IMG/VR virus record: IMGVR_UViG_3300030380_006483
Source: a virus
Length of the DNA stretch: 64,000 bases
Reading direction: 5' to 3' (one strand)
A program made the position numbers and the translations under genes. Under the pieces are notes generated by a model. It saw nothing but the letters and a program-made list of their open reading frames with translations, was not told the origin of the DNA and made no database searches. Below, piece after piece: positions 15,775 through 46,129 of this stretch (position 1 is its first letter; each line of letters begins with the position of its first letter).

Positions 15775-15775
15775 A

Positions 15776-15807
15776 TTTGATTACCTGAAAAATTTTTCGT
15801 ACATTTA
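15776..15807 (+). promoter_or_regulatory. Bacteroidota-type promoter
   Basis: TTTG-N20-TACATTTA followed by CGG; near copy at 16584. Confidence 0.7.
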
Positions 15808-15829
15808 CGGCCAATTTAAAATATAAAAT

Positions 15830-16234
15830 ATGGAAAAGGTTATAGTAGAATATGATAATGATGTTGTTTCAACTTACGATATCGTTACTTTTAGATCATA
15901 TAAAAAAGGTAAAAAAGAAGTATTATTTAATCACGTAGATGATTTAATTAATCACCCCTCTGTGAGATCTCATAAATTTGTAAATCCCACAAAAAAGAGA
16001 AGTGTAGGAGAAGGTACTACTTCAACTTACATACCAAAAAATAAAAAAGAAAATATTTCAATGCCTATAGAAATAGCTGATGAAATAGTCATGTTTGCTA
16101 AGGGTGATGGAGCTGGTTTTACTAAAGAAATAGTAGACAAATGGAATCAATATCTTGACTTTAATTTACATACTAAATTTGAAAGGTATGGTTTTACTGG
16201 TTCTTCAAGATTAAATACTATTTTTAAAATATAA
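15830..16234 (+). CDS. Hypothetical protein
   Basis: 134 aa ORF directly after a promoter. Confidence 0.65.
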   Translation: MEKVIVEYDNDVVSTYDIVTFRSYKKGKKEVLFNHVDDLINHPSVRSHKFVNPTKKRSVGEGTTSTYIPKNKKENISMPIEIADEIVMFAKGDGAGFTKEIVDKWNQYLDFNLHTKFERYGFTGSSRLNTIFKI

Positions 16235-16582
16235 ATGGATCCAAAATTAATATTTTTAGGTTTTTTATACTTTATAATTGGTCAAGTAATTATTTGGTTC
16301 CAATCACATTTACAATTTTTTAATAATTGGTCTAAAGATAATCCTTTTATAATATCAATAGCTGGTATATTAGTATCATATGTTTCAATTTTAGCTACAA
16401 AACACTTAGCAGATGCCTTTGATGGTTTGGTTTGGCCTTCAAGACTTATAGGATTTGGAATAGGAATAGTTATATTTTCAGGTTTAACTTGGTGGTTATT
16501 AGGTGAAAAACTAGATATGAAATCAGCTATATGTGTTGTACTAGCATTTTGTATACTTCTAATTCAACTTTACTGGAAATAA
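16235..16582 (+). CDS. Small four-helix membrane protein (DMT/EamA-like)
   Basis: Four hydrophobic segments; WLLGEKL resembles the SMR/EamA loop motif. Confidence 0.55.
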   Translation: MDPKLIFLGFLYFIIGQVIIWFQSHLQFFNNWSKDNPFIISIAGILVSYVSILATKHLADAFDGLVWPSRLIGFGIGIVIFSGLTWWLLGEKLDMKSAICVVLAFCILLIQLYWK

Positions 16583-16583
16583 A

Positions 16584-16615
16584 TTTGGCTACCTGAAATA
16601 GGGTTCGTATATTTA
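16584..16615 (+). promoter_or_regulatory. Bacteroidota-type promoter
   Basis: TTTG-N20-TATATTTA followed by CG; shares TACCTGAAA and TTCG with the 15776 promoter. Confidence 0.7.
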
Positions 16616-16643
16616 CGTGTTCAATTAAAAAGTTAAAGGTTAT

Positions 16644-21847: not shown

Positions 21848-21920
21848 TGCGGGGTGGAGCAGAAGGTAGCTCGCTGGGCTCATAACCCAGAGGTCAGAGG
21901 TTCGAATCCTCTCCCCGCCA
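21848..21920 (+). tRNA. tRNA-Met(CAT), initiator type
   Basis: Full cloverleaf; anticodon stem CTGGG/CCCAG with three G-C pairs; T1:C72 mismatch; T-loop TTCGAAT; CCA not encoded (CTA follows). Confidence 0.93.
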
Positions 21921-21927
21921 CTATTTT

Positions 21928-34342: not shown

Positions 34343-36094
34343 ATGTATAAAAAAATATACGAGCAAGGTAGAGGAGAAAATAAACATTTAATACATCTTT
34401 GGACAGACGAGGGTTACGAAAAGATTGAATGGAACAACTATGCTTATAAAGAATGTTCGCCTAATGATGCAGAATTTAAAGGTTTGAAAGGTGAACCACT
34501 TCGTAAAACACACACTTGGGATAGAAAAACCCCTAAACTCCACTTTAGTGATATCTCAGCTCACCAAAAATTCCTTATAGAAAAATATGGTATTGACGAT
34601 GAACCTTCTACTTCACATAAGGAGGTTTTTTTTGATATCGAGTGTGAGATGGGAGGAGCATTGACAGAAGAATATATTTCTAATGCACCTAAGCCAATTA
34701 CTTCTATTGCTTGGTATGATAAACAAGCAGATTGGTGGTCAATCGTTATTTTAGATAAAAAAGGTCAATTAAAACATACTAAAACTAAAAATAAAGAAAT
34801 TATACCTTTACCACATGAGGCAGATCTATTAGATACATTTTTAAATAAAATGGAAGAAATTCAACCAGATATGTTAATTGGGTATAATAGTGACTATTTT
34901 GATATTCCTTATTTATACTATAGAATGTGTAATGTGTTGGGAGAAACAGATGCAAAAAGATTATCCCCTATAGGAATAGTTAAATACAAAAAGAATAATC
35001 AATATTGGTATAAAAAAGACCAATTTGTAGATATAGCAGGTGTTGAATCTCTTGATTATATGAGATTACATAAAAAATATAGTTGGGAGGATGAACCAAG
35101 TTGGAAGTTAGATTCTATTGGAGAAAAATATGCTGGTATAAATAAAATTGAATATGATGGTTCTTTAGATAGATTATTTGAAGAGGATATACATAAATTT
35201 ATTCAATATAACTTTGTTGATGTTGAAATATTAGTTGAATTAGATAAAAAATTACAATATATAGCTTTAACAAAAAATTTAGCCCATAAAGGTAAAGTAA
35301 AATATAGTGAAGTGTATGCTTCATCTAAAATCCATGATGGTGCTATCTCAGCTTACCTATTATCTCAGGGAATAATACCCCCAGGACGCCCTAAGGGGGA
35401 AAGTAAATTAAATTATGCTGGTGGTTACTTATTTTGCCCTAAAGCAGGGTTATACAAATATATGTTTGATGAAGATTTAACATCACTATATCCTTCTATT
35501 ATAATGACTTTAAATATAGGTAGAGAAACTATTATAGGAAAAATAATTACAGATACATTACCCGAAAAATTAGAAGATTTTGGTCCTTATGGTGGTAAAT
35601 CTGATCGAAATAACTATCTAGGTTTAGGTGATTTAAAAGAAATGGATCCAGATGATGAAATTAGAGTTATGGATCCTAATGAAAATATTCAAAACACAAC
35701 TGTAGGTAAAGTAATTGAAGTAATAGAAAAGAATAATTTTTCAATAGCGGCAAATGGAACCTTTTTTAGAACTGATAAACAATCAGTATTATCTACTATT
35801 TTAAATAAATGGTTTGATGAAAGGGTCATTTATAAAAATAGAATGAAGCACTGTTACCAAAAGGGTGATAATGAAGGTGGTGCTAAAAATCATTTACTAC
35901 AATATACAATGAAAATTTTACTGAATTCTTTATATGGAGCTACTGCCTTACCATCATTTAGATATGGTTTACCAAAATCTATACTAAGTGAAGCAATTAC
36001 ATTATCAGGGTGGAGAATCATACAAGAATCTGCATTAGTTGCTAATACACATATGAATAAAGTTTTAAGGAATGAAATAAAGTTAGCATTATAA
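34343..36094 (+). CDS. Family B DNA polymerase, N-terminal part (exonuclease, motifs A and B)
   Basis: FFDIEC, GYNSDYFDIPY, YNFVDV, DLTSLYPSII, KILLNSLYG; no DTDS. Confidence 0.9.
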   Translation: MYKKIYEQGRGENKHLIHLWTDEGYEKIEWNNYAYKECSPNDAEFKGLKGEPLRKTHTWDRKTPKLHFSDISAHQKFLIEKYGIDDEPSTSHKEVFFDIECEMGGALTEEYISNAPKPITSIAWYDKQADWWSIVILDKKGQLKHTKTKNKEIIPLPHEADLLDTFLNKMEEIQPDMLIGYNSDYFDIPYLYYRMCNVLGETDAKRLSPIGIVKYKKNNQYWYKKDQFVDIAGVESLDYMRLHKKYSWEDEPSWKLDSIGEKYAGINKIEYDGSLDRLFEEDIHKFIQYNFVDVEILVELDKKLQYIALTKNLAHKGKVKYSEVYASSKIHDGAISAYLLSQGIIPPGRPKGESKLNYAGGYLFCPKAGLYKYMFDEDLTSLYPSIIMTLNIGRETIIGKIITDTLPEKLEDFGPYGGKSDRNNYLGLGDLKEMDPDDEIRVMDPNENIQNTTVGKVIEVIEKNNFSIAANGTFFRTDKQSVLSTILNKWFDERVIYKNRMKHCYQKGDNEGGAKNHLLQYTMKILLNSLYGATALPSFRYGLPKSILSEAITLSGWRIIQESALVANTHMNKVLRNEIKLAL

Positions 36095-37998: not shown

Positions 37999-38262
37999 AT
38001 GGCATTAAAAAAACAATCAATAAGACAAGGAGTTTATGTTTTAATAGATGGAGTTAACGCTTCTAAAGAAGAACTTATTACATTAAGCGAAACATGGACC
38101 GAAAAAAAAGAAGTATTTTTTAGAAAAATGCTTCAACAAGGAGGTAATTTTAGAATGGATGGAAAAGATTTTATAGTTAAAATTAGAGAAAATCTTCAAC
38201 TTAGATCAGATGGAACTAAAGATGGGGGAGTAGTTACAATCCCAGGAGGAAGAAGTTTTTAA
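37999..38262 (+). CDS. Hypothetical protein inside the PolB split
   Basis: 87 aa; TAATG overlap with PolB C-part. Confidence 0.65.
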   Translation: MALKKQSIRQGVYVLIDGVNASKEELITLSETWTEKKEVFFRKMLQQGGNFRMDGKDFIVKIRENLQLRSDGTKDGGVVTIPGGRSF

Positions 38263-39185
38263 TGAAACACTTAGAGAACACCCCTTGGTATATTTGTAAT
38301 GAAAATGATGAGAATCTATGTGCTTATGTAGATACTGATTCAAATTATTTTAATGCAGAACCATTACTTAATCATTTGTATCCTAACTTTGAAGAATTAT
38401 CTGATGAAGAAAAAGATTTAAAATTAGAACAAATTGCTTTAAAATACCAGGATATCATTACTGATCATTATAATTTATTAGCTAAAGAATGTTTTAATGT
38501 TGATAAACATAGATTAGAAATGAAAACCGAGTGTGTTATTCGTTCAGCTTATTTTAGAGCCAATAGACGTTATGCCCAATGGATTACAAAACAAGAAGGT
38601 ATAACTAAAGAAACATTAGATGTTAAGGGTTTAGAATATAAAAAATCTAATTTTCCAAAATTATTTGGTACATTTTTTAAAAATATATTAGAAGATGTTT
38701 TAAAGGGTACTGAGCAGGATGAAATTGATACCCGTATTTTAAATTTTAAGAAAAAGATATTAACAGAAATACCTATTGAACAATTAGGTAATCCAACAGG
38801 TGTAAAAACATTAAATAAATACACCGAACGTAAACCAGTTGGGGGAGAGGCATTTACTGTTATAAAAAAAGGTGCACCCGCTGCTGTTAGAGCAACAATT
38901 AAGTATAATGATTTACTTAGATATTGGAAATTAGATAGTAAACATTCACCAATTGTTCAAGGTGATAAAGTTAAATGGATCTATTTAAAGAAAAATCCAT
39001 ACAATATTGAGGCATTAGCTTATCTTGATTTTGATATGCCTGATAAAATTAAAGAATTTTTAGATAAATTCGCAGACAAAGAAAAAGTTTTTGATACTAT
39101 ATTATTAAATAAATTAGAAGGATTTTATGATGATTTAGGTTGGAGCTTAAATACAAACCCTTATGTAAACCAATTTTTTATATGA
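38262..39185 (+). CDS. Family B DNA polymerase, C-terminal part (motif C, thumb)
   Basis: YVDTDS, RRYA, DVKGLE, GDKVKWIY. Confidence 0.9.
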   Translation: MKHLENTPWYICNENDENLCAYVDTDSNYFNAEPLLNHLYPNFEELSDEEKDLKLEQIALKYQDIITDHYNLLAKECFNVDKHRLEMKTECVIRSAYFRANRRYAQWITKQEGITKETLDVKGLEYKKSNFPKLFGTFFKNILEDVLKGTEQDEIDTRILNFKKKILTEIPIEQLGNPTGVKTLNKYTERKPVGGEAFTVIKKGAPAAVRATIKYNDLLRYWKLDSKHSPIVQGDKVKWIYLKKNPYNIEALAYLDFDMPDKIKEFLDKFADKEKVFDTILLNKLEGFYDDLGWSLNTNPYVNQFFI

Positions 39186-39904
39186 TTTATATTTTTGATA
39201 TAGATGGGACACTAACCCCCAGTAGAAACAAAATGGATAAAAATTTCCATGATTTTTTTATGGACTTTGTTAAGATCCATAGAGTATGGCTAATCTCAGG
39301 TAGTGACCATACTAAAACAATAGAACAAATAGGTGTTGACTTATGGACAAATGTAGAAAAAGCTTATCAATGTTCTGGTAATCAACTTTTTCAAAGAGGT
39401 TCTTTAATTAGAACTAGTGATTGGGAATTACCTATAGCAACTAAATGGTGTTTAGAAAAATTCTTAGAACAGTCTAAATACCCACATAGATATGGAAACC
39501 ATATCGAAACTAGACCAGGTATGGTTAATTTCTCCATTGTGGGAAGACAATGTACTCAAGAACAAAGAGAAGAATACTTTAAATGGGATAATGAACATAA
39601 AGAAAGAGTTGAATTTACTAAAGAATTAAAAGAAAGATATCTTGGTTTAGATGCTGTAGTAGGTGGTGAAATTAGTATTGACATTTATCCAAGAGGTAAA
39701 GATAAAGGACAAATCGTAGAAGAATTAGATGATAATTTTATGTTTTTTGGAGATAAATTATCACTAGGTGGCAATGATTATCCTATTAAACATGCTTCAC
39801 AACTTAAACAACTAGAAGGAAATGAATTTTTCCATGTTAGAGGTTGGAAAGACACAAGAAATATATTAACTTCCATAATACAAACAAACGCAGGAGTAGT
39901 ATGA
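39182..39904 (+). CDS. HAD-family phosphomannomutase (eukaryote-type PMM)
   Basis: FDIDGTLT, ISGSD, IETRPGMVNFSIVGR, GGEISIDI, FFGDK..GGNDY; likely ATG at 39182. Confidence 0.85.
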   Translation: MIYIFDIDGTLTPSRNKMDKNFHDFFMDFVKIHRVWLISGSDHTKTIEQIGVDLWTNVEKAYQCSGNQLFQRGSLIRTSDWELPIATKWCLEKFLEQSKYPHRYGNHIETRPGMVNFSIVGRQCTQEQREEYFKWDNEHKERVEFTKELKERYLGLDAVVGGEISIDIYPRGKDKGQIVEELDDNFMFFGDKLSLGGNDYPIKHASQLKQLEGNEFFHVRGWKDTRNILTSIIQTNAGVV

Positions 39905-40620
39905 AAAAAAGTCATATAGTAAGTAATATACAAAAATATTTTTTAGGTGGTTTATCTAAAGGAGTTATTTGGAAAATACAAAATAACCAAGCAGTTATTG
40001 AATTTACTACAGAAACAAAAGATACTGTAGGAAAATTATTTTTTAATATAGATCTAGATGAGTGTGAAATTGGTATAAATAATACTGATGCTTTATTACG
40101 TTTACTAAGTATAACAGATGAAGAGTTACAATTAGAATTAGATACCAAAGAAACAGGATTACCTACTAAATTAAGAATTCAAGATAAAAAATATGATTTA
40201 GATTATAATTTAAGTGATCCTAAGATTATTGAAAAAGTACCTAATGTACAAGAAATAGATTATGATTTTACTTTTAAACTAAATGATGAATTTATTAGTA
40301 GCTTTTTAAAAGCACACAATGCATTAGAAAAAACAAATGAATTCACTTTAAATACAGCTACTACTCCACAAGGGGAAAATGTTGTAGAACTAGTAATAGG
40401 AGAGAGAGAAAGACACGCTAATAAGATTAAATTCACTGAACCTGCTGAATTTGAAACAGCAAGTGATTTATTACCATTTTCAGCAATTGTAATTAGAGAA
40501 ATACTTTCAGCTAATAAGGGTAGTGAAGGTTCGGCATCTGTAAGTAATAAAGGATTATTAAAAATTTCATTTAATACAGATGAAAGTTTAGTAGAATATT
40601 TTGTTGTAAGACAGCAATGA
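39901..40620 (+). CDS. DNA sliding clamp (gp45/PCNA-like)
   Basis: About 240 aa, two-domain alternating pattern, ends SNKGLLKISF..EYFVV; clamp-loader genes nearby. Confidence 0.7.
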   Translation: MKKSHIVSNIQKYFLGGLSKGVIWKIQNNQAVIEFTTETKDTVGKLFFNIDLDECEIGINNTDALLRLLSITDEELQLELDTKETGLPTKLRIQDKKYDLDYNLSDPKIIEKVPNVQEIDYDFTFKLNDEFISSFLKAHNALEKTNEFTLNTATTPQGENVVELVIGERERHANKIKFTEPAEFETASDLLPFSAIVIREILSANKGSEGSASVSNKGLLKISFNTDESLVEYFVVRQQ

Positions 40621-41174
40621 TAGAAAAACGTATAAAAGTTTATGATAATTTATTTTCTAGTCAATTAGAAGATATTATTGAAAAATTATGTTTAACTCAA
40701 CTTCCTTATTATTATACCCCTAATATTGCTACTGAACAACACACTATATTATCTCCTGGTTTTTCCCATTTTTTTATTAATTCCTTATCAAAACCCCATT
40801 CTGAAAAATATACTCCCTTTTTTAATAATATATTATATACTTTATCAAATAAATTATCTATTGTAGTAGAACAAATAATAGCAGGTAGAGTATTCATGCA
40901 TTTACCTTCTCCTAATCCCGGAGCTGATACTATTCATACAGATTTAGACACTCCTCATTGGGTAGCACTTTATTATATCAATGATAGTGATGGTGATACT
41001 ATATTTTTTGATAATAATGAAAATGAAATTAAAAGAGTATCTCCTAAAAAAGGTAGAATTGCTTTTTTTGATGGCTCCATCCCACATTGTAGTTCTAGAC
41101 CTTCTAAAAGTACACGAGTTATAGTTAATTTTGATTTTAATGGTACATTTTTTGGAGAGGAAAAAAAGAATTAG
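40617..41174 (+). CDS. 2OG-Fe(II) oxygenase-like protein
   Basis: IHTD..WVALYYINDSDGDT..PKKGRIAFFDG.IPH..R. Confidence 0.78.
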   Translation: MIEKRIKVYDNLFSSQLEDIIEKLCLTQLPYYYTPNIATEQHTILSPGFSHFFINSLSKPHSEKYTPFFNNILYTLSNKLSIVVEQIIAGRVFMHLPSPNPGADTIHTDLDTPHWVALYYINDSDGDTIFFDNNENEIKRVSPKKGRIAFFDGSIPHCSSRPSKSTRVIVNFDFNGTFFGEEKKN

Positions 41175-41182
41175 TATATTTA
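41151..41182 (+). promoter_or_regulatory. Bacteroidota-type promoter for hsp20
   Basis: TTTG (41151-54)-N20-TATATTTA (41175-82), embedded in the last codons of the oxygenase. Confidence 0.7.
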
Positions 41183-41188
41183 TGATAA

Positions 41189-41250
41189 ATAACTGAGACT
41201 CTAGGGCGAGCAGTTATAGTTTTATGTTTAACCGAGTAGCTAAGGCACTC
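41189..41250 (+). ncRNA. Structured hsp20 5' leader (two hairpins)
   Basis: ATAACTG(41189-95)/CAGTTAT(41211-17) with inner CTC/GAG; GAGT-a-GC-taag-GC-ACTC (41234-50). Confidence 0.55.
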
Positions 41251-41264
41251 ACAAATTTAATGAT

Positions 41265-41678
41265 ATGAATACATTTATTTATGAACGTACACCGTTCGAC
41301 ATTTTAATTAGAAATTTTTTCCAAGACGCAAGCACATATTCTCCGCTTGCAGAAACCAAAGTTCCACATCCAGTAGATATTTACACTTCAGATAAAGGAT
41401 TATCCTTTGATATCGCTTGTACGGGAATTAGTAAAAAAGATATTGAATTAAACATTCAAGACAATCTTTTAAAAATCAATTATAATAAACCAGAAGAAGA
41501 TAAAGATGATAAAGACTATATCCATAGGGGTATTGCTAAAAGATCATTTAATCTAGGATGGAAAATTGATAATAAATTTGATTTATCTAAAGCTACAGCT
41601 AGCTATAATGATGGGTTATTATCAATTATTATACCATTCTCAAAGGGATCAGAATTAAAAACTCTGCAAATTAAGTAA
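41265..41678 (+). CDS. hsp20: Small heat-shock protein (Hsp20/alpha-crystallin)
   Basis: HPVDI, IACTGISKKDI, YIHRGIAKRSF, A.YNDGLL.I.IP, C-terminal LQI motif. Confidence 0.92.
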   Translation: MNTFIYERTPFDILIRNFFQDASTYSPLAETKVPHPVDIYTSDKGLSFDIACTGISKKDIELNIQDNLLKINYNKPEEDKDDKDYIHRGIAKRSFNLGWKIDNKFDLSKATASYNDGLLSIIIPFSKGSELKTLQIK

Positions 41679-41683
41679 AAAAA

Positions 41684-41696
41684 GTTCGCCCTAGAG
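41684..41696. repeat. Inverted repeat of the hsp20 leader, just after the stop codon
   Basis: TCGCCCTAGAG (41686-96) is the exact reverse complement of CTCTAGGGCGA (41199-209). Confidence 0.85.
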
Positions 41697-41728
41697 CTTG
41701 GTTTTTACGTGTATTTTTCGTATATTTA
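41697..41728 (+). promoter_or_regulatory. Bacteroidota-type promoter for the groES-groEL unit
   Basis: CTTG-N20-TATATTTA followed by CGG; shares TTTTCGTAyATTTACGG with the 15776 promoter. Confidence 0.7.
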
Positions 41729-41756
41729 CGGCAATAATCAGTTATAAAACACACAT

Positions 41757-42038
41757 ATGGCAAATCCAAATTTTAAAGGTAGACCTGTTGGATCAGGTAA
41801 AAATACATTTATAGAAGACCCATTATTAGGGGATTTTAAAATAGTAATTGATGAATACAGTTATAATGTATTTGATATTACTAAAAATAAAACTATAGGT
41901 TTTTATTCAACATTAGAACAATCAGTTTTAGCAATTGCTAGTAAACAAATGTTAGAAGATAGAACTTATAGTTTAACAGAATTCGCTAAAGAATTTAAAG
42001 AAACACATTTAAAACTTAAAGAAGCAATTTTAAAATAA
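41757..42038 (+). CDS. Hypothetical protein
   Basis: 93 aa; N-terminal KGRP; coupled to groES. Confidence 0.65.
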   Translation: MANPNFKGRPVGSGKNTFIEDPLLGDFKIVIDEYSYNVFDITKNKTIGFYSTLEQSVLAIASKQMLEDRTYSLTEFAKEFKETHLKLKEAILK

Positions 42039-42328
42039 TGAGTAAATTAAGACCAGTTAATGGAAACGTTATCCTTAGACCTATAGAGGAAGAGGAGCAA
42101 ATGGCGGGAAATATTATTATTCCTGACATGGGTAAAGAAAGACCCGAAATGGGAGAAATTATAGCAATTTCAAATGTTTATAATTTTAATAAAGGTGAAT
42201 ATGCACCTTCAACATTAGAAGTTGGAATGAAAGTCTTAATCCCAAAAATGGGTGCACAGGCTATAACCATTGAAGGAGAAGAATATTATATAACAGCACA
42301 AAATTCAGTGCTATCAATCGTAGAATAA
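42038..42328 (+). CDS. groES: Co-chaperonin GroES
   Basis: LRPVNGNVILRP..AGNIIIPD..GEIIAI..VGMKVL. Confidence 0.9.
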   Translation: MSKLRPVNGNVILRPIEEEEQMAGNIIIPDMGKERPEMGEIIAISNVYNFNKGEYAPSTLEVGMKVLIPKMGAQAITIEGEEYYITAQNSVLSIVE

Positions 42329-43968
42329 TGACAGAAACAAGTTTCGGAACAGATTTAAAAAATAAGCTTTTAGAGGGAGTTCAAAAGTTAAATAATAGTG
42401 TAGCGTCAACATTAGGACCTGCAGGTAGAACAGTATTAATTAAAGAAGATACTGGTGAAATTAAAGTAACTAAAGATGGTGTTACTGTAGCTAAAGCATT
42501 TAAGGAATTAGAAGATCAAACTGAATCTATAGGTGCAGAATTAGCTAAAAAAGTCTCTACTAAATGTGCTAATGAGGTAGGAGATGGTACAACAACTTCA
42601 ACAGTATTAGCTACTGCTATTTTAGAAGAGGGAATTAGACAAATTAATGATGGTTCTAATCCTGTTAATATTAAAAAAGGTATAGATGAAGCTGTCACAA
42701 CAGTAGTAAATAGACTAAAAGAAATGTCCACTGAAATTACTGAAGATACCCAAATTAAAGAAGTAGCAACTATATCAGGTAATAATGATGTTGAAATAGG
42801 TAATTTAATTTCTACTGCTTTAGATAAAGTTGGTAGAGATGGAATTGTTACTATTGAAGAATCTAAAACAGGTGAAACTTCATTAGAGATAGTTGAAGGT
42901 ATGCAATTTGATAGAGGTTTTAAATCTCCTTATTTTGTCACGGATAATAATACAATGCAAGCTGTATTAGATGATCCTTATGTATTAATTTTTGATGGAA
43001 GAATTACACAAGCATCAGAATTAATTAATGTATTAAATAAAGCAAGTGGTGAATCTAAACCTATTTTAATTGTAGCCGAAGATATTGATGGTGAGGCATT
43101 AGCAACATTAATTGTTAATAAAATGAGAGGTACTGTTAAAGCAGTAGCTGTTAAAGCACCAGAATTTGGAGACAGAAGAACTATGGCTTTAGAAGATTTA
43201 GCTACAGTTACAGGTGGACAAGTTTTATCTAAAAATAAAGGACATAAACTTGATAAAATGTCTCCTGTTCAATTTAATGAACTATTAGGTACAGCTAGAA
43301 AAGTAACAGTAGAAAAAGAAACTACTACTATTATAGACGGTAAAGGTGGAGAAGAAGCTATTACTTCTAGAGCTGAAGAAATTAAAACACAACTTGATAA
43401 TGCTAATTCTGCATTTGAAAAAGAAAAACTACAAGAAAGATTAGGTAAGCTAATTGGTGGTGTAGCAATTATTAATGTTGGTGGCAATTCAGAAATTGAA
43501 ATTAGAGAAAAAAAAGATAGAGTAGAGGACGCATTATTTGCTACTAAAGCTGCTTTAGATGAAGGTATTATAATAGGTGGAGGTACTGCTTTATTATATG
43601 CTGCAAATACTATTAATGTAATTTCTGAAAACAAAGATATAGCCATTGGTAGAAGAATTGTTAAATCAGCTATACAAGAGCCATTTTTAAAGATTTTAAA
43701 TAATGCTGGTCATGAAACAAATGATGTTAGATTTGCATCTTACGGATTAAGTAGTGCCGATCCTAATTTTTGGTTAGGATTAGATTATAAAAATCTAGAA
43801 ATGGTTAATTTTAAAGAATTAGGTATAATTGACCCTAAAAAAGTAACTAGAATTGCATTAGAAAATGCTGCCTCAATAGCGGGTACTATTCTTACTACTG
43901 AATCTGTTGTTTATGAAAAAAGAACAGATAAAGAAGAAGAACCTAACCCAATGATGGGAATGATGTAA
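42328..43968 (+). CDS. groEL: Chaperonin GroEL
   Basis: STLGPAG, TKDGVTVAK, GDGTTT, GMQFDRG, ERLGKL.GG, C-terminal MMGMM. Confidence 0.96.
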   Translation: MTETSFGTDLKNKLLEGVQKLNNSVASTLGPAGRTVLIKEDTGEIKVTKDGVTVAKAFKELEDQTESIGAELAKKVSTKCANEVGDGTTTSTVLATAILEEGIRQINDGSNPVNIKKGIDEAVTTVVNRLKEMSTEITEDTQIKEVATISGNNDVEIGNLISTALDKVGRDGIVTIEESKTGETSLEIVEGMQFDRGFKSPYFVTDNNTMQAVLDDPYVLIFDGRITQASELINVLNKASGESKPILIVAEDIDGEALATLIVNKMRGTVKAVAVKAPEFGDRRTMALEDLATVTGGQVLSKNKGHKLDKMSPVQFNELLGTARKVTVEKETTTIIDGKGGEEAITSRAEEIKTQLDNANSAFEKEKLQERLGKLIGGVAIINVGGNSEIEIREKKDRVEDALFATKAALDEGIIIGGGTALLYAANTINVISENKDIAIGRRIVKSAIQEPFLKILNNAGHETNDVRFASYGLSSADPNFWLGLDYKNLEMVNFKELGIIDPKKVTRIALENAASIAGTILTTESVVYEKRTDKEEEPNPMMGMM

Positions 43969-43986
43969 TAATATTTATCAGTAATT

Positions 43987-44898
43987 ATGAATAAATTAAT
44001 TTATGTAATATCGTTTATGCTCATAGGAATGAGTGTAAGCTGTGAGAAACAAGATTGGTTCTCACCTGAAGATGTTGACGCGATAAAGGCACAACACCAA
44101 GCTCAATTAAATGAGTTAACGTTTGCTAATAACACATTAACAACTTCAGCTGCGGATCTTACTACTCAAGTAGCGACTTTAACTACCACAGTTGAAACGT
44201 TACAAGCAGAAGTAACATCTTTGACAACATCAAACACTACATTATCTACTGAGAATACAGCGTTAACAGCTACTAATACAGCTAATACAACGACTATTGC
44301 AGGTTTAAATGATGATGTAACTGCTTTGACTGCACAAGTAGATAGTTTAACAACTAATATTGCTACTTTGGATGCACAGATTGTAACTTTAAACACTACA
44401 ATAACAAACTCTGGGGCTACTAATACAGATCTAACAGCTCAAATAACAACACTAACAACTAGTGTTACTACTTTGACTGCTCAAGTTACTACATTAGAAG
44501 CTGCGGCAGATGTTTTAGAGGCTGATATATTAGCGCTTAAAAACTTTAAATCAATTAGAGATAAATTAGATGTTATGGTTGCTGCAACTATTGCAGATAC
44601 TAACCTTAATAAAGCTATTGATTCTTTATCTATTGGTTTAACTTCTACAAGCATTACCCCATCAGTATTAAAAGGATTAGTTACTACAGAAGCTAATTGG
44701 TTATTTAATAACGCAATTACAACTGGTACTGTATCTATGACAACTTCAGCTACTACTTTTTATAACACATCTACAGATACAAATGTAGTTAATTATAAAA
44801 CACTAGTTACTGAATTGACAGCTGCATGGAATGCTGCTAAAGAACCTACTTTACTTTTATGGTTTATTGAATTCGTTAAAGAATACGAAAATCTATAA
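43987..44898 (+). CDS. Predicted lipoprotein with Thr-rich heptad coiled coil
   Basis: Signal MNKLIYVISFMLIGMSVS-C; long run of LTTQVAT-type heptads. Confidence 0.7.
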   Translation: MNKLIYVISFMLIGMSVSCEKQDWFSPEDVDAIKAQHQAQLNELTFANNTLTTSAADLTTQVATLTTTVETLQAEVTSLTTSNTTLSTENTALTATNTANTTTIAGLNDDVTALTAQVDSLTTNIATLDAQIVTLNTTITNSGATNTDLTAQITTLTTSVTTLTAQVTTLEAAADVLEADILALKNFKSIRDKLDVMVAATIADTNLNKAIDSLSIGLTSTSITPSVLKGLVTTEANWLFNNAITTGTVSMTTSATTFYNTSTDTNVVNYKTLVTELTAAWNAAKEPTLLLWFIEFVKEYENL

Positions 44899-44907
44899 AA
44901 ATATATT

Positions 44908-44940
44908 ATAGGGGGGCTTTGCTCCCCTATTTTATTTTAT
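44908..44940 (+). terminator. Rho-independent terminator
   Basis: ATAGGGGGGC-TTT-GCTCCCCTAT stem (one G-T pair) followed by TTTATTTT. Confidence 0.8.
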
Positions 44941-44948
44941 TATATTAA
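44918..44948 (+). promoter_or_regulatory. Possible promoter for the clamp-loader unit, overlapping the terminator
   Basis: TTTG (44918-21)-N19-TATATTAA (44941-48). Confidence 0.45.
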
Positions 44949-44955
44949 TGGTTAT

Positions 44956-45876
44956 ATGATTAAAGATCACACTTTATTTACTGAAAAATTTCGACCAACT
45001 AATCCTAAAGATTATATTGGAAACGAAGTATTTAAATCAAGTTTAAACCAATGGATAGAACAACAAGATATTCCACATATCTTATTGTATGGTCCCGCAG
45101 GTACAGGTAAAACTACAGCAGCTAAATTAATTATAACTAACCTAGATTGTGATTCAATTTATATCAATTGTTCAGATGAAAATGGTATAGATACAATTAG
45201 AGAAAAAGTTAAATCATTTGCTTCTGCTGCAACATTCCGCGAATTAAAAGTGGTTATAATGGATGAAGCAGATTTCTTAACGATTAACGCACAAGCAGCA
45301 TTACGTAATGTTATTGAAACATATTCTAAAACAACACGTTTTGTATTTACTTGTAATTATATTGAACGTATAATTGATCCTATACAATCTAGAACATCAG
45401 TATTTGAAGTATTACCTCCTTCTAAATTAGAAGTGGCTAAACGTTGTGCTACTATTTTAGATGCAGAAGGCTGTAACCGTGCAACTGATGATATTGTAGA
45501 AATTGTAAATAAAACTTACCCTGATATTAGAAAAACATTAAACTTATTACAATCGTGTATAGTTTATGATGTTGCAGGAACATTTTTACAATTAAATAAA
45601 GATATTGTTAATCAAAAACAATATACAGATCAAATTATTGATTTAATTAAATTAAAAGATGCTAAGGCATTTAATCAAATTAGACAAATTGTAGCTGATT
45701 CAAATATAAGAGACTACAATGAATTATATAGAGCCTTATTCGAAAACCTAGATTCATTCCACAACCCAGTGTTAGGTACAATTATTATTGCCGAATCACA
45801 ATATCAGTCTGTTATGGCTCCTGATAAAGAAATCACTTTCATGGGATGTATCGCAAATTTATTAAAAAATGGATAG
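44956..45876 (+). CDS. Clamp loader AAA+ subunit (RFC small/gp44-like)
   Basis: TEKFRP, GPAGTGKT, INCSDENGID, MDEAD, IQSR. Confidence 0.92.
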   Translation: MIKDHTLFTEKFRPTNPKDYIGNEVFKSSLNQWIEQQDIPHILLYGPAGTGKTTAAKLIITNLDCDSIYINCSDENGIDTIREKVKSFASAATFRELKVVIMDEADFLTINAQAALRNVIETYSKTTRFVFTCNYIERIIDPIQSRTSVFEVLPPSKLEVAKRCATILDAEGCNRATDDIVEIVNKTYPDIRKTLNLLQSCIVYDVAGTFLQLNKDIVNQKQYTDQIIDLIKLKDAKAFNQIRQIVADSNIRDYNELYRALFENLDSFHNPVLGTIIIAESQYQSVMAPDKEITFMGCIANLLKNG

Positions 45877-46129
45877 TACACAACAACCACAGATGAATCT
45901 AGATTTATCTAAAACAACCCCTATTGATACACCTTCAGGTGGAAAAATATGGCACACAGGGATGGTACTTAGAAAAGTATCTAAGTTCATAACTGGAACT
46001 CAAGAAGATGCTATTGTACCAATTACAATATTTTATGATCCTGAAACTAATGAAATATTAGAAGATACTTTACCTCAAGATTTAAGAGAAGAGTATGCAG
46101 GCACAAAATATAGAAAGATGCAAGATTAA
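45869..46129 (+). CDS. Hypothetical protein
   Basis: 86 aa, coupled to neighbours. Confidence 0.65.
   Translation: MDSTQQPQMNLDLSKTTPIDTPSGGKIWHTGMVLRKVSKFITGTQEDAIVPITIFYDPETNEILEDTLPQDLREEYAGTKYRKMQD

Follow-up and report, generated by a model that had tools for sequence, protein, structure and literature searches.

To our knowledge, few bacterial or phage mRNAs (hok and related toxins, hbs and icaR) have been documented to pair their 5′ end with their 3′ end, each in a narrow group. Leaders of small heat-shock protein (sHSP) genes, in turn, often contain RNA thermometers. In the hok mRNA of the hok/Sok system of plasmid R1, a helix between the 5′ and 3′ ends (tac/fbi) is accompanied by a metastable 5′ hairpin (PMC9841398). 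Closure of the hok message frees an anti-Shine-Dalgarno (anti-SD) box that blocks translation, trimming of the 3′ end activates the message, and an antisense RNA then acts. The hbs mRNA of B. subtilis is protected from RNase Y by a 14-bp pairing of its 5′ and 3′ UTRs (PMC5737220), which overlaps a mapped RNase Y site and acts together with a strong Shine-Dalgarno (SD) sequence. In icaR of S. aureus, the 3′ UTR covers the SD and represses translation (PMC3868564). The PeSL cassettes of T4-type phages carry a promoter-like box in direct repeat around a variable gene, with a local stem-loop beside the promoter (PMC2839356, PMC4122927).

The locus analysed here surrounds the hsp20 gene of an uncultured, marine, T4-like phage. 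The original prediction, which described a 5′ hairpin of the hsp20 message complementary to its own 3′ flank, held that no element of this form was known. This was too strong as a general statement, given that hok, hbs and icaR all pair their UTRs; for phage hsp20, our full-text literature search found no description of a paired-end element.

The window, i.e. the whole 64,000-nucleotide stretch that was analysed, is assigned to a distant T4-like myovirus by its tail-fibre and family-B DNA polymerase genes. The closest relative of its DNA polymerase was that of Microcystis phage Mel-JY01, with 34% identity. The polymerase ORF (34343–36091) covers only positions 17–569 of the 856-position PHROG profile, which is consistent with a split polB. 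The ORF at 41265–41678 (+ strand; ATG at 41265, TAA stop at 41676–41678) encodes a 137-residue protein of the HSP20/alpha-crystallin family (Pfam PF00011, E = 2.1e-11, 44.3 bits against a cutoff of 20.8), and this ORF carries the alpha-crystallin domain. Neither the hsp20 region nor the Hsp20 protein gave a match in blastn and tblastn searches of 50,697 cultured phage records. The gene sits within an array of phage genes that all lie on one strand; its 5′ neighbour is a 2OG-Fe(II) oxygenase-like gene, and on the 3′ side it is followed by a 93-residue ORF (from 41757), groES and groEL. The features of the locus, in window coordinates, are as follows.

41171–41186, + strand: promoter-like box that adjoins the 5′ arm on its 5′ side; TTAGTATATTTATGAT here, with TATNTATA(AT) as the family consensus.
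41189–41217, + strand: local 5′ hairpin that can form as an alternative, from AUAACUG/CAGUUAU plus CUC/GAG; its loop contains the core of the 5′ arm, and its energy is −7.5 kcal/mol.
41191–41211, + strand: 5′ arm of the long-range helix, made of the outer AACUGAG, the bulged A41198 and the GC-rich core CUCUAGGGCGAGC; duplex −33.2 kcal/mol, covarying with the 3′ arm.
41218–41233, + strand: U-rich spacer (AGUUUUAUGUUUAACC) with a conserved UUAACC at its end, from the leader alignment.
41234–41250, + strand: hairpin 2, in which a bulged A separates 4 bp from 2 bp below a UAAG loop, from RNAalifold.
41265–41678, + strand: hsp20 ORF, 137 codons for amino acids, Pfam PF00011, with more than 500 relatives in metagenome contigs.
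41684–41703, + strand: 3′ arm of the long-range helix, GUUCGCCCUAGAG followed by CUUGGUU, beginning 5 nt after the stop codon.
41717–41730, + strand: second promoter-like box TTCGTATATTTACG, an exact match, preceding the gene at 41757 and groES/groEL.

The original prediction paired CTCTAGGGCGAGC (41199–41211) with GTTCGCCCTAGAG (41684–41696), and all of its coordinates proved exact. The 11 perfect base pairs that it described are formed by CTCTAGGGCGA at 41199–41209 and the reverse complement at 41686–41696, which are the only exact copies of these sequences in the window. The pairs G41210–U41685 and C41211–G41684 complete the core, giving the 13 pairs with one G-U that had been claimed, and the distance of the 3′ arm from the stop codon was likewise as stated. 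Beyond that prediction, the helix extends through AACUGAG (41191–41197) and CUUGGUU (41697–41703) to 20 bp, with A41198 bulged. The two arms lie ~470 nt apart with hsp20 between them, and 53 nt separate the end of the 5′ arm from the AUG. The 20-bp helix is present in the minimum-energy fold of 41175–41760 (z = −2.9), and its predicted probability at 37 °C is 0.98.

The bare 11-mer inverted repeat is within chance, with about six exact ones of at least 11 nt, at least 4 G/C and at most 3 kb apart in the window. A generic listing of inverted repeats in the window was dominated by AT-rich noise, and duplexfold applied to all intergenic pairs was uninformative because long AT-rich windows yield large energies. 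What makes the helix significant is that both arms lie in non-coding DNA at the borders of the gene and that they covary in relatives.

Searches of IMG/VR and metagenome contigs with the Hsp20 protein and its profile yielded 173 loci; in the metagenome scan alone, 516 Hsp20 relatives were reported. After removal of duplicates, both flanks were present in 140 loci, and 103 of these had non-redundant arms. In nearly all loci, leader and 3′ flank formed their strongest duplex at the same place, with very different sequences. Plain MAFFT alignment of the 103 full loci followed by RNAalifold misaligned the divergent arms and therefore recovered hairpin 2 alone. We therefore used alignment-free tests of cognate against non-cognate flanks, together with independently anchored columns. 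The original prediction had proposed a comparison of hsp20 flanks among related phages, and in that comparison the pairing covaried: the cognate flanks paired with −30.2 kcal/mol and dissimilar non-cognate flanks with −16.0 kcal/mol. The cognate pair was better than every dissimilar partner in 80 of the 103 loci.

In the anchored test, AGRG was picked in the leader and CYCT in the 3′ flank, each side independently of the other. The triplets adjoining these anchors were complementary in 102 of 108 loci and fell into 14 classes, among them TCT/AGA, TCG/CGA, CCC/GGG, CTC/GAG, CCT/AGG and TTT/AAA. For the 57 distinct arm pairs, 89% of cells were paired, compared with 76% when partners were shuffled (maximum 80% in 1000 shuffles) and 38–52% in slid registers; at least two Watson-Crick types alternated at four helix positions. 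We also counted at least 40 changes of arm class on the Hsp20 tree, a quick tree of a short protein, and these changes may reflect either many independent events or much recombination. The helix had a median length of 19 bp in the relatives (IQR 18–22) and a mean predicted probability of 0.93 in 35 of them. The first paired base of the 3′ arm lay a median of 8 nt past the stop (IQR 6–9.5). Together, these comparisons support end-to-end pairing as a selected feature of the hsp20 sense RNA.

In two short metagenome contigs (L043 and L038), the 5′ and 3′ arms belong to different classes, and the helix is lost in both (−10 and −18 kcal/mol). These are either natural, tolerated recombinants or assembly chimeras.

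The box upstream of the 5′ arm is one of four intergenic matches to TTCGTATATTTACG on the + strand of the window at up to two mismatches. Apart from the copy past the 3′ arm, the only other close + strand copies begin at 15796 and 16604, both of them intergenic. Among the 103 related loci, TATTTA was found in the upstream flank of 71 and TATATT in the 3′ flank of 87, and in the 63 loci with a box the helix started 2–6 nt after it. The box is probably a promoter from which transcription would start at the 5′ arm. Since one box lies 2–6 nt before the helix and a second one past the 3′ arm, hsp20 looks like a transcription unit of its own, with an RNA that begins at the 5′ arm. From this arrangement in the sequence, we infer the start and the ends of the transcript as well as the monocistronic expression of hsp20. 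The hexamer GTTATA was not enriched close to gene starts in the window, and SD sequences were absent from most of its genes.

Isolated mismatches inside the helix were G-T in 19 cases and A-C in 1. When the duplex energies of the two strands were compared, the + strand had the more stable duplex in 82 of 103 loci (p = 3e-12). A G-U wobble occupied one helix position in 34 of the 57 arm pairs. The G-U excess and the energy advantage of the sense strand point to selection acting on the sense mRNA, not on the DNA.

The same results bear on the alternative raised by the original prediction, a small mobile cassette with terminal repeats, which is rejected by the strand-asymmetric mismatches and by the boxes lying outside the arms. 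More broadly, the arms could bound a mobile hsp20 cassette as its terminal inverted repeats, or they could form a cruciform or a site for a recombinase, covarying through one protein bound at both ends. The neighbourhood of the cassette does differ from contig to contig (it follows a tRNA gene in L034 and L042 and other genes elsewhere), and the mixed arms of the two contigs described above would fit such an origin. Against it stand, besides the strand asymmetry and the conserved outer boxes, the many arm classes found while the protein remains 50–90% identical, which is unlike a protein-binding site, the lack of a visible target-site duplication in the window, and a cassette that holds neither transposase nor recombinase. 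We consider a DNA-level role extremely improbable. In L034 and L042, the 3′ end of the tRNA lies directly upstream of the hsp20 box; the window itself has a tRNA-Met (CAU) gene at 21848–21921.

The local 5′ hairpin exists as originally described, with ATAACTG (41189–41195) facing CAGTTAT (41211–41217) and an additional CTC/GAG. It uses the same 5′ strand as the long-range helix, so that the two are mutually exclusive, as had been proposed, and both covary among relatives. Across the 103 loci, the outer arm paired with the cognate following segment at −6.2 kcal/mol and with non-cognate segments at −4.2 kcal/mol (Wilcoxon p = 6e-14); versions from other clades include AAGATCG/CGATTTT, AAGATTG/CAATTTT and ACAAAAC/GTTTTGT. 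The hairpin is weak (−2 to −8 kcal/mol), with a predicted occupancy of 0.2–0.5 in RNA lacking the 3′ arm and 0.00 in full-length RNA.

The second hairpin ends 14 nt before the ATG, in line with the original description, and compensatory changes were found in relatives. RNAalifold predicted six pairs from 45 leaders, four of which showed compensatory double changes, and the loop region C-U(U/A)AG-G is nearly invariant across the family. AGRG is fixed within the 5′ core in 108 of 140 loci. Judged from the alignments, both AGRG in the 5′ core and CUUAGG in the loop of hairpin 2 are conserved beyond the needs of pairing. In eight distant relatives (L151, L163, L150, L173, L137, L149, L153 and L160), the CUUAGG/CUAAGG motif stands 4–10 nt before the ATG as an ordinary SD (e.g. 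CTTAGGAGGT), and in the clade of the window it is found in the hairpin loop, ~19 nt upstream of the ATG. Hairpin 2 may derive from an SD that has since been displaced. The leader also contains an upstream ORF of 14 codons (41225–41268; ATG at 41225, TGA overlapping the hsp20 ATG as ATGA), which was dropped as a candidate because it is not conserved, with an early stop in L003 and no ATG in L006.

The best explanation of these features is that hsp20 forms a self-contained unit, made of a box, the 5′ arm, a leader with a small conserved hairpin, the ORF, the 3′ arm and the next box. Within this unit, the helix may act as an end-to-end clamp that defines and protects both ends of the hsp20 message and would thereby stabilise it, a proposal to which we give roughly even chances. 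The first ~20 nt past the likely start site would pair with the ~20 nt that begin 5 nt after the stop, closing the translated region into a loop. As long as the 3′ arm is untranscribed, the 5′ arm would be held in the weak local hairpin with its GC-rich core displayed in the loop; the emerging 3′ arm would then nucleate on that loop and displace the local stem, since the long-range helix is ~25 kcal/mol more stable. The local hairpin would thus be a co-transcriptional placeholder, provided that folding proceeds in this order. Given the usual ribosome footprints, both arms would lie just outside the ribosome. Closure appears compatible with translation, because there are 53 nt between the 5′ arm and the AUG and a median of 8 nt between the stop and the 3′ arm, and the closed helix, just outside initiating and terminating ribosomes, could persist while the message is translated. 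A clamped message would offer no free 5′ end to end-dependent endonucleases and would block 3′ exonucleases, possibly after read-through transcripts have been trimmed.

Several observations fit the clamp less well. The predicted occupancy of the local hairpin in truncated RNA is low for a placeholder, two contigs have arms that do not pair, and end protection leaves the fixation of AGRG in the 5′ core unexplained. Moreover, should the −10 element be TATAAT and not TATNTA, transcription would start downstream of the first few outer pairs.

By analogy, the role proposed here is that of the hbs pairing, protection of the leader from an endonuclease. Both messages are short and have a long-range UTR-UTR helix (14 bp in hbs, ~20 bp in hsp20), and hbs is monocistronic, as hsp20 would be. 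The hbs pairing is tied to a mapped cleavage site and a strong SD, whereas most genes in the hsp20 window have no SD.

A helix of this size could also serve as a processing stem: long early or late transcripts would run through hsp20, and the host RNase III would cut the ~20-bp helix, freeing a message whose paired ends set its lifetime. Stems cut by RNase III are found around rRNA and at the early sites of T7, and the usual minimum for the enzyme is about two helix turns. The hsp20 helix, at 18–22 bp, spans about two turns, and no U-tract follows the 3′ arm. Read-through is likely, as no terminator separates the upstream gene, hsp20 and the next genes before 44908–44930, and the 5′–3′ duplex of icaR is an RNase III substrate (PMC3868564). 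However, a conserved promoter-like box immediately precedes the 5′ arm, and a site that served for processing alone would have no use for one. We regard such processing as possible but unlikely; it is compatible with the clamp and overlaps it, in that a processed clamp would still protect the ends.

The site at 44908–44930 is the only strong canonical intrinsic terminator in 38000–46000 (10-bp GC-rich stem plus a T-run) and comes after the ORF that follows groEL. Because it is the sole strong one, hsp20, the 93-residue ORF, groES and groEL may be co-transcribed up to 44930.

Alternatively, the nascent 3′ arm could pair with the 5′ arm into a terminator-like stem that ends hsp20 transcription, and in an attenuator variant, transcription would continue into groES/groEL when the local hairpin retains the 5′ arm. 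In the window, UUUUA follows the 3′ arm and A-rich sequence precedes the 5′ arm, as such a model would have it. Across the 63 loci, however, 2.9 of the 8 nt past the 3′ arm are T, where flank composition predicts 2.75, so that there is no U-tract. A promoter-like box follows at once, so that the downstream genes would be independent of read-through. Termination across a 480-nt loop is, in addition, kinetically unfavourable. We therefore judge a long-range terminator or attenuator very unlikely.

The original prediction further suggested that the two pairings form a switch that couples temperature or full-length transcription to translation or stability; of these, an effect on stability is plausible. 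Temperature sensing was not borne out, as the predicted probability of the helix falls only from 0.99 at 10 °C to 0.93 at 65 °C. Like the sHSP thermometers (ROSE, fourU and cyanobacterial hsp17), hsp20 has a structured leader before an sHSP gene; unlike them, its long-range helix does not melt in the physiological range, and hairpin 2 ends before the AUG and leaves it uncovered. An Rfam scan of 40500–42500 with E up to 10 returned only noise. An RNA thermometer was rejected on these three grounds, namely the helix at 0.93 or above from 10 to 65 °C, the position of hairpin 2 and the lack of an Rfam family match. The suggested control of translation fared no better: in 35 loci, the predicted accessibility of the ribosome site was 0.54 with the 3′ arm and 0.55 without it.

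An anti-SD of the icaR type was likewise rejected, since the 3′ flank paired with the cognate ribosome site at −13.0 kcal/mol and with non-cognate sites at −13.2 kcal/mol (z ~0, p = 0.33). The hsp20 3′ flank thus differs from that of icaR, except in a distant clade (L163, L150 and L173), where the 3′ arm (UCUCCUAAG) is perfectly complementary to the 5′ arm and also, over 9 nt, to the SD hairpin (CUUAGGAGA). The 5′ arm of these three relatives resembles an SD decoy, and icaR-like repression is possible there.

The layout of hok invites a further reading, in which full-length mRNA is stored in its closed, stable form with little translation, and opening flips the 5′ arm into the local hairpin and alters translation. 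As in hok, the 5′ end pairs with the 3′ UTR in full-length RNA and, earlier, a 5′ element pairs with the segment immediately downstream; both pairings of the same 5′ strand are kept by covariation, and the closed form is the stable one (PMC9841398). The conservation of AGRG and CUUAGG beyond pairing and the 9-nt SD complement of the distant clade also favour a gate of this kind, and in E. coli, IbpA acts through the 5′ UTR of its own mRNA to repress translation (PMC10474464). Opening could be triggered by 3′ trimming, by heat, by a terminating ribosome 5–8 nt from the helix, or by Hsp20 itself, either through binding of hairpin 2 or when Hsp20 is titrated away by aggregated proteins; it would expose the AGRG core and the CUUAGG hairpin as putative binding sites. 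The unchanged accessibility of the ribosome site, the lack of cognate-specific complementarity between this site and the 3′ flank, and a helix predicted to be stable to 65 °C all speak against the gate. Furthermore, the strand released when the helix closes (X′) changes with the arm; the ribosome site does not, which rules out pairing between them. We consider a hok-like timer distinctly unlikely, and hold the same view of the idea that the two pairings form a programmed folding pathway that gates Hsp20 synthesis from a stable, closed store. If true, it would mean that phages recruited a hok-style RNA switch for a chaperone gene, possibly as one case of a general packaging of portable genes with their own RNA-level control.

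The hsp20 element matches the tac/fbi arrangement of hok in two defining features and fails in the third, SD sequestration, for which the comparison rests on prediction; it is partly hok-like and not a member of that group. The hok product is a toxin, whereas hsp20 encodes a chaperone and has no ORF for a small toxic peptide; on the minus strand, no promoter or terminator signal for an antisense partner stands out.

Returning to the end-to-end clamp, hundreds of uncultured marine phages appear to keep a paired-end design on a gene that encodes no toxin, and its natural compensatory variation offers a ready-made mutational series. The clamp provides a testable model of how phages may fix the lifetime and the ends of one message inside long transcription units, and of how a gene that is shuffled from genome to genome may bring along its own control at the RNA level. 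For annotators, it is a warning not to take every inverted repeat that flanks a phage moron for a DNA element.

Among 185,579 species genomes, the only matches (L174 and L175) were short contigs of 4.4 and 2.2 kb in Flavobacteriaceae MAGs, which may be either a weak hint at the host or mis-binned phage fragments. L174 holds a complete cassette with a further arm class, CTCCAGGGCG/CGCCCTGGAG.

The hsp20 cassette resembles the PeSL cassettes in its directly repeated promoter-like box around a variable gene and in its differing neighbourhoods. It differs from them in that neither box has a local stem beside it, and the pairing strands lie 470 nt apart around the gene. Elsewhere in the window, the intergenic regions 15775–15829 and 16583–16620 share ATTTGRYTACCTGAAA followed by the box TTCGTAYATTTACG, as around hsp20, and bracket two small ORFs (15830–16234 and 16235–16582). 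Judging from their sequence, these two regions look like PeSL-style promoter cassettes.
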